DNA from: Escherichia coli
Lineage (GTDB): Bacteria; Pseudomonadota; Gammaproteobacteria; Enterobacterales; Enterobacteriaceae
NCBI RefSeq assembly: GCF_044647545.1
Contig: NZ_CP172818.1
DNA length: 64,000 nucleotides
Reading direction: 5' to 3' (one strand)
The position numbers are program-made. Below are positions 54,601-57,600 of this stretch, one piece after another. How positions within the stretch are numbered: the first letter of the stretch is position 1; the number at the start of each line of letters is the position of its first letter.

Positions 54601-57600
54601 ACAGGCAAACAATACCGCTACCGTGGCGAATGGTCAGCGCCATCTGCTCAACGGTCATGGTTTCTGCCGGGAAGATCATATCGCCTTCGTTTTCACGGTC
54701 TTCATCATCAAGCACCATTACACCGCGTCCTTCACGCAGCGCAGCCAGTGCATTTTCAACACGTTCGAAAGGCGTACCAAAAGAGGAAAGTAGCGTCTGA
54801 TTCATGGTAAAAAAACCTCACTAAAATTATGGTTACCAGAATCAGGGCAGTCTTAGGAGTGGCGGCATATAGCCAAAATAACGTGAGCGGGTCCATGCCC
54901 GACAGAATCGTTACTCTCTCCCATCCGGACTCTAACCGTCGGCCCCGGAATTACACCGGATCTGCTGTCCTTTGAGTTCGCACCCAAAGCGCTCGCGGGC
55001 TTTCAACTGAGTTGATTTACCGCCGGTGGGGAATTTCGCCCCGCCCTGAGAATAAGCGGATTCACTATAACGCTAATGATTAGCGGCAGCAACGCATAGC
55101 TTCACATAATTCTGGTTTATGACTTACCCTTATCGCACTACAATGGCACTCAACACCTATCAGTACAGGGAAACTACAATGATTGACCCGAAAAAAATTG
55201 AGCAAATCGCTCGCCAGGTTCACGAATCAATGCCTAAAGGAATCAGGGAGTTCGGGGAAGATGTGGAGAAAAAAATCCGCCAAACCCTACAAGCGCAGCT
55301 GACGCGTCTCGATCTGGTAAGCCGCGAAGAATTCGACGTTCAGACGCAAGTCCTGTTACGGACTCGTGAAAAACTGGCGTTACTGGAGCAGCGCATCAGT
55401 GAACTGGATTTGAAAAAACCAACACAAAAACGGGCCAGACGGCCCGTAATATCAGTGTTCTAATTCAAGTTCTCTGGTTTGCATCATTTGTTGGCAATAC
55501 CAGGCATAACGTGCGCAAAACCAGGTTCTATGTTCTTCATCCATGTTACCAGTAACGGCCAGAATATCGACCGGGCGACCTTCTGCGTGCATTCTGGCAA
55601 AACTACGCGCCAGGAAATCGAAATTATTTAAAGAATTAAGACTATGATCCATAAGCACATCCTCCGGTTATCGCATACCTTTTAAGGCCATATGCTTTTT
55701 CTGATTTCAGTATTCCCCAATCAGTGTAGTGCCTTTAAACATAACGTGCGTAAATATATTGTCCCCGATCACACTTTTTAGTGAAAAATAAAAAACCATA
55801 TTAAAAGACTTTCTCTTCCAGAACTTCTCTAACATGTGTTATTATTAACAAAGATAAATGTAAGCAAGGAAACTATCCTAAAGTAAATATTGCGTCACTA
55901 AATGGACATTGGAGTGACATATGATTTTATTCGCCGACTATAACACCCCTTATCTTTTCGCTATTTCCTTTGTACTGTTGATCGGCCTTTTAGAAATTTT
56001 TGCGCTTATCTGCGGTCACATGCTCTCCGGTGCACTTGATGCACATCTTGACCATTATGATTCCATAACCACAGGTCATATTAGCCAGGCACTTCATTAT
56101 CTCAATATCGGAAGATTGCCAGCTCTCGTCGTTCTTTGCTTACTGGCTGGTTTTTTTGGTCTTATTGGCATCCTGTTGCAGCATACCTGCATCATGGTCT
56201 GGCAATCACCACTCTCGAACCTGTTTGTGGTTCCTGTCAGTTTACTGTTTACGATTATTGCGGTGCATTATACCGGTAAAATAGTTGCGCCCTGGATTCC
56301 ACGCGATCATAGCTCAGCTATTACAGAAGAAGAATATATTGGTAGCATGGCGTTAATTACCGGTCATCAAGCCACTTCAGGTAATCCCTGCGAAGGAAAA
56401 CTCACCGATCAATTTGGCCAAATACATTATTTACTACTGGAGCCTGAAGAAGGAAAAATTTTCACTAAAGGAGACAAAGTGTTAATTATTTGCCGACTTT
56501 CTGCAACTCGATATTTGGCGGAAAACAATCCCTGGCCCCAAATATTGTAATTTATTAATCAAAAGGAAATTTAATAATGGATGATATTGTTAATTCTGTG
56601 CCCTCCTGGATGTTTACCGCGATTATTGCCGTATGCATTCTGTTTATTATTGGAATTATTTTCGCCAGGCTCTATCGTCGCGCTTCGGCAGAGCAAGCTT
56701 TTGTTCGTACTGGTTTAGGTGGGCAAAAAGTGGTAATGAGCGGTGGCGCAATCGTGATGCCGATCTTTCATGAAATAATCCCCATCAATATGAATACTCT
56801 GAAGCTGGAAGTCAGCCGCTCAACCATTGATAGCCTGATTACGAAAGATCGTATGCGCGTCGATGTCGTTGTCGCTTTCTTTGTGCGGGTAAAACCGTCA
56901 GTGGAAGGTATTGCCACCGCCGCCCAGACGCTGGGGCAACGCACCCTGTCGCCTGAAGACTTACGTATGTTGGTTGAAGATAAATTTGTCGATGCCCTCC
57001 GTGCAACAGCTGCACAAATGACCATGCATGAGTTACAGGATACCCGCGAGAACTTCGTGCAGGGCGTACAAAATACCGTTGCTGAAGATCTGTCGAAAAA
57101 CGGCCTGGAACTGGAAAGCGTTTCACTTACCAACTTTAACCAGACGTCGAAAGAACATTTCAATCCTAACAACGCCTTTGACGCCGAAGGTTTAACCAAG
57201 CTGACGCAGGAGACGGAGCGCCGTCGTCGCGAACGTAACGAAGTTGAACAGGATGTAGAAGTTGCGGTGCGTGAGAAAAACCGTGATGCACTTTCGCGCA
57301 AGTTGGAGATTGAACAACAAGAAGCGTTTATGACGCTTGAGCAGGAGCAGCAGGTTAAAACCCGTACCGCTGAGCAGAATGCGAAAATTGCGGCTTTTGA
57401 AGCTGAACGTCGTCGTGAAGCAGAGCAGACGCGAATTCTGGCTGAACGACAGATTCAGGAAACGGAAATCGACCGCGAACAGGCCGTCCGTTCCAGAAAA
57501 GTTGAAGCTGAACGTGAAGTTCGCATTAAAGAGATCGAACAGCAGCAGGTCACCGAAATCGCCAACCAGACGAAATCGATCGCTATTGCCGCCAAATCGG

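Follow-up and report, generated by a model that had tools for sequence, protein, structure and literature searches.

The window, a 64,000-nucleotide stretch of an Escherichia coli genome (contig NZ_CP172818.1), contains ubiK and glgS as a convergent gene pair. The ubiK reading frame is located on the plus strand at 55179..55463, with its ATG at 55179 and its TAA at 55461-55463, and encodes 94 amino acids. On the minus strand, glgS occupies 55452..55652, with the start at 55652 and the stop at 55454-55452, and is intact at 66 amino acids. The ORF calls agreed with the coordinates given in an earlier note on this DNA for both genes and for a 12-bp overlap between them. The statement that the two stop codons overlap was wrong: one stop lies at 55461-55463 and the other at 55452-54, and the 12 shared nt (55452..55463) belong to the 3' ends of the two ORFs. 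Upstream of ubiK lie ribB (54152-54805, minus strand) and the FMN riboswitch of ribB (54909..55057, minus strand; RF00050, 120.9 bits), the latter unaffected, and the downstream neighbours of the pair are yqiJ and yqiK. The intact intrinsic terminator of glgS (55420..55447, minus strand) consists of the hairpin ACGGGCCGTCTGGCCCGT and TTTTTGTGTTG. It is identical to that of strain FDAARGOS_497 and now lies inside the extended ubiK reading frame.

Neither gene stands out within its family. The full length of GlgS matched Pfam family PF08971 over positions 1-66 of 66 (E=1.1e-45, 153.9 bits), and the glgS DNA of the window is identical to that of FDAARGOS_497. UbiK matched the BMFP family PF04380 with residues 1-76 (E=1.1e-26; 93.5 bits, with the gathering cut-off at 37.2), which covered profile positions 1-75 of 77. 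The protein can be divided into a normal part, residues 1-76, and an aberrant tail of 18 residues, 77-94. Among Enterobacterales, UbiK naturally varies at its end, the proteins having 93-101 amino acids and divergent tails, and no other part of it is less conserved.

In K-12, the two genes are separated by a 6.6-kb island encoding the Yqi (ExPEC adhesin I) chaperone-usher fimbriae, in the order ubiK-ygiL-yqiG::IS2-yqiH-yqiI-glgS, and the core flanking genes are common to K-12 and the window. The K-12 form of UbiK has 96 amino acids and ends in a third, unrelated tail, after which the island follows; both this tail and the island are absent from the window, whose flanks are 2-4% divergent from those of K-12. 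None of ygiL, IS2 or yqiGHI was found between ubiK and glgS, where K-12 aligned at the flanks only, and the K-12 island sequence (positions 3071-9702 of the K-12 locus L002) had no match anywhere in the window, which thus does not carry the Yqi locus. The absence of the island, as proposed in the earlier note, was therefore upheld. It is an ordinary, common and already known polymorphism of E. coli. Among 5426 complete E. coli genomes, a 1051-nt query across the locus showed ubiK adjoining glgS without the island in 2063 (38%). The presence or absence of yqi has been on record since 2009, when it was missing in all 153 of 153 intestinal pathogenic strains and in ∼80% of the commensals tested (PMC2771359).

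The genomes FDAARGOS_497 (NZ_CP033850.1), O157:H7, MS6198 and ECONIH1 are island-less like the window and share its gene order of ribB, FMN riboswitch, ubiK, glgS, yqiJ and yqiK. Their DNA is identical to the window on both sides of the junction, with glgS and its terminator included. What differs is the junction itself. The island-less UbiK, for example that of FDAARGOS_497, has 99 amino acids (WP_001298379.1) and the tail ...ISELEARNNSVADLQSPPAIPPIDKAE, and a 34-nt spacer carrying the terminator hairpin separates the ubiK and glgS stops, whereas the window encodes a frameshifted UbiK of 94 amino acids and lacks 61 nt net. The contiguous 221-nt junction with the 99-residue UbiK and the 34-nt spacer was present in 2060 complete genomes, and the full-length junction was kept in all island-less genomes sampled, from the best to the weakest match. 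The window thus departs from the natural island-less haplotype. When its UbiK C-terminus was compared with the reference proteins, as the earlier note had suggested, it was not reference-like, and the overlap was missing from the reference genomes. The C-terminus is indeed abnormal, being unlike both natural forms, but the loss of the island fails to explain it, because island-less genomes have a normal 99-residue UbiK and a 34-nt spacer. For the same reason, the absence of the island does not create the overlap, of which these genomes have none.

The difference from FDAARGOS_497 is confined to a very short segment. To the left of the junction, the window is identical to this genome over 3454 nt (0 differences), and to the right, after substitutions at 55415 and 55419, the next difference lies 3.1 kb away. 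In the BLAST comparison with FDAARGOS_497, an unalignable TTT at 55409-55411 stood in place of 64 reference nucleotides of the ubiK 3' end; the substitution T>A at 55415 destroys the native ubiK stop (TAA>AAA), and the second substitution is G>C at 55419. Together, these changes form an A-rich 12-nt filler, TTTGAAAAAACC, at 55409..55420 on the plus strand, which stands for 73 nt of the island-less haplotype, namely the final 22 codons of ubiK with its stop codon and AGC. The junction as read in the window is GAACTGGATTTGAAAAAACCAACAC, also given as GGATTTGAAAAAACC. The net loss of 61 nt causes a frameshift after codon 76, and the reading frame then crosses the glgS terminator to a TAA located 12 nt within glgS. 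The new tail begins with E77D at residue 77, continues with LKKPTQKR and has a proline at position 81; the acidic, proline-rich tail of UbiK is swapped for a basic one of 18 residues.

The position of the change was compared with the two natural haplotypes. Between the K-12 and island-less haplotypes, alignability ends at GAACTGGAA and returns at AACAC.AAAACGGGCC. The first altered position in ubiK is 1 nt ahead of the point at which alignability is lost, and the change ends where the alignment returns. No repeats or microhomology were found at the deletion endpoints, and the 18-nt junction has neither another copy nor a template within the window. The junction does not resemble a simple spontaneous deletion, whether by slippage or mediated by microhomology, given the lack of repeats, the 3-nt insertion and the two substitutions.

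A coiled coil formed by UbiJ and two UbiK chains has been modelled, in which UbiK residues 49-85 take part and R72, I73 and E77 make contacts (PMC9499169); no solved structure of UbiK was found. Judged from the sequence, the C-terminal coiled coil of residues 49-85 would not be intact in the window protein, which diverges from residue 77 on. If the allele were true, it would clip the end of the modelled interface with UbiJ (PMC9499169).

The junction was searched for in genome, protein and metagenome collections. Not one of the 5426 complete E. coli genomes contained it as a single piece, and the best genome matches aligned in two pieces with 61 extra nt between them. The exact protein of 94 amino acids is known as WP_400164888.1, which among ∼15 billion proteins derives from a single contig of 4,499,902 bp. 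The 33-nt junction pattern returned 0 metagenome matches, while the same search with the normal junction as positive control returned 8. The only record of this UbiK variant is thus a 4.50-Mb contig, and the relatives have genomes of 4.9-5.3 Mb. This size is consistent with a source assembly that has lost non-K-12 segments across the whole genome.

The composition of the window was examined beyond the ubiK-glgS locus. It has 23 homopolymer runs of at least 9 nt, including C31, A31, A26 and A22, whereas the K-12 and FDAARGOS_497 reference loci L001-L005, ∼126 kb in all, contain a single run of 9 nt. The runs of the window are concentrated at four sites, and low-entropy blocks were identified at 9011-9910, 29241-30040 and 51791-51930. 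Between yghU and hybG, a degraded IS3-family element occupies 9011-10030, where the nearest relatives have an intact IS3. Runs of C31, C12 and T12 precede this element, of which 9151-9500 matches the FDAARGOS_497 IS3 well, while 157 differences are spread over 9508-10032. Between yqhH and ygiQ, where relatives carry two hypothetical genes (∼1.4 kb), the window has ∼840 nt of poly-A-rich filler (29177-30018). This filler includes runs of A31, A26, A21 and A19 and aligns neither to the relatives nor to K-12, which has a 40-nt spacer there. In the spacer between ygiC and ygiD (51788-51954), A/C-rich filler with runs of A22 and A13 was found at 51790..51952, an anomaly of the same class as the ubiK filler. 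The spacer is composed of a K-12-type hairpin, GGCACTCGCCATCCGG, and ∼130 nt of the A/C filler. At this site, the nearest relatives have a 3.7-kb assT-dsbL-dsbI segment, and no complete E. coli genome covered at least 80% of a 751-nt query over the spacer. The first 722 nt of the window hold a degraded copy, of 68% identity, of the yghQ 5' end and upstream region of FDAARGOS_497; in the relatives this region is intact. The copy is indel-rich and shows a smoothing in favour of A, T and homopolymers. The sequence is accurate again from 705-723, precisely at the K-12-specific IS5LO junction (723 corresponds to NC_000913 position 3131340).

Two further sites carry the K-12 structure within flanks of the other type. 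Between ygiN and parE, a K-12-type empty-site spacer was located at 43661..43713, and the 7.3-kb island of the relatives is missing. The flanks are identical to those of island-bearing genomes, being free of differences for 1.2 kb to the left and 8074 nt to the right, and the end of ygiN is chimeric at the nucleotide level, with CTT of the relative type followed by TAA of the K-12 type. When this site was extended by 1 kb in either direction, its best single-piece match among the 5426 genomes was 97.5%, and the combination is no known natural haplotype among these complete genomes. A second K-12-type empty-site spacer lies between ygiQ and ftsP (32290-32348), where the relatives' 7.7-kb island is missing although the flanks are again identical to those of genomes with the island. 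Smaller irregularities were also observed. The ygiZ-mdaB spacer has four 1-nt deletions and a substitution at 42418-42435, in a segment that K-12 does not share. The sibD/ibsD repeat-family region has a GGGG insertion and a 1-nt deletion at 58550 and 58587-58590, and a SIB RNA is still detectable there at 58463-58615 (126.8 bits). Over 20 kb of accessory DNA present within ∼88 kb of NZ_CP033850.1, the nearest relative, has no counterpart in the window.

In haplotype painting, 1266 SNP sites of the window carried the FDAARGOS_497 allele and 3 that of K-12; 55415 and 55419, within the ubiK junction, are two of these three. Every window segment that did not align to FDAARGOS_497 was either a K-12-type empty site or garbled. 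A natural recombinant between K-12 and a wild strain was considered and rejected, since just 3 of the 1269 informative sites have K-12 alleles and sequence of the K-12 type is confined to structural junctions.

Three explanations of the ubiK 3' end were weighed. We infer that the aberrant end and the 12-bp overlap are very probably an artefact of genome reconstruction, for which a reference-guided, consensus or model-based procedure would be the likely cause, and that the true strain presumably has a normal 99-residue UbiK and the 34-nt spacer. The junction is unique, segments of the window are garbled, haplotypes are chimeric, and the breakpoints of the ubiK change coincide with the boundaries of alignability; unnatural or chimeric stretches are present at other structurally variable sites of the same record. 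Such a pattern could arise if the sequence of an island-less strain of the FDAARGOS_497 type had been fitted to a K-12-like structural scaffold or harmonised with it. Whatever can be aligned between strain and scaffold would then be reproduced almost perfectly, segments found only in the strain would be dropped, shortened or turned into low-complexity filler, and segments found only in K-12 would be removed. At ubiK, the final 73 nt of this island-less haplotype, having no K-12 counterpart, would have collapsed to the 12-nt A-rich filler, and this collapse would have produced the frameshift and the read-through of the glgS terminator to the TAA 12 nt inside glgS. Artefacts of reference-guided or consensus assembly, in which structural differences between sample and scaffold are dropped or garbled, resemble the window in these respects: what can be aligned is almost flawless, sample-only segments vanish or become low-complexity filler, empty sites of the scaffold type stand in flanks of the sample type, and one garble boundary falls at a K-12-specific IS5 junction. 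Sequence of 68% identity and homopolymers of 31 nt are more extreme than expected of common polishers. Some points speak against an artefact. Compared with the poly-A and poly-C blocks in other parts of the window, the 12-nt filler is short and much less extreme. The sequence has been accepted in a public protein resource under a WP_ accession, and UbiK, whose tail varies in nature, could tolerate an altered one.

A real mutation private to the strain, in which an island-less ubiK suffered a 64-bp deletion with a 3-bp insertion and the 12-bp overlap is genuine, is unlikely. It would accord with a reading frame that stays open to a proper TAA end, with a BMFP domain kept to residue 76, with a tail that is the part conserved least, and with glgS and its terminator being untouched. 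It would also call for several independent changes within 12 nt, next to 3454 nt with 0 differences, at endpoints that have neither microhomology nor a repeat, and the outcome was seen once across all the collections searched, in a window that holds demonstrably artificial sequence. Moreover, the mutation would be expected to cut the modelled interface of UbiJ with the two UbiK chains, which spans residues 49-85 and includes E77 (PMC9499169). Its endpoints are the haplotype-alignability boundaries, which are physically meaningless in an island-less genome. The artefact is preferred because a spontaneous deletion in such a genome need not respect these boundaries, while an artefact would. The third explanation takes up the suggestion of the earlier note that the junction may shape the UbiK C-terminus, and sees in it the scar of an independent yqi excision from a K-12-like, island-bearing ancestor. 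The change does cover exactly the segment that differs between the island-bearing and island-less haplotypes, and 55415 and 55419 match K-12 and not FDAARGOS_497. An island-bearing ancestor would, however, bring K-12-type flanks, including the divergent glgS 3' end, whereas the left flank has 0 differences from FDAARGOS_497 over 3454 nt and the flanks are 95.6-98.0% identical to K-12; no island-bearing relative with the flanks of the window was seen among the genomes compared. An excision scar is therefore rejected as highly improbable, because both flanks are those of the island-less haplotype.

The reconstruction artefact remains the preferred explanation, and the junction is most likely uninformative on the organism, because it is unique to one assembly and lies among clearly artificial stretches. 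The odd UbiK tail and the overlap are probably not a real feature. There is little chance that the junction is real, with a frameshifted ubiK, a basic tail, translation through the bidirectional glgS terminator and a true convergent overlap; if it were, the assembly of UbiJ with UbiK, or interference between the 3' ends of ubiK and glgS, might be altered. The aberrant protein has already entered public collections as a separate UbiK variant, WP_400164888.1. In practice, calls of presence or absence, junctions and ORF ends at the variable sites of this record are unreliable. The biological weight of the finding is small, as the island polymorphism has long been known in E. coli and the UbiK tail is probably not real.
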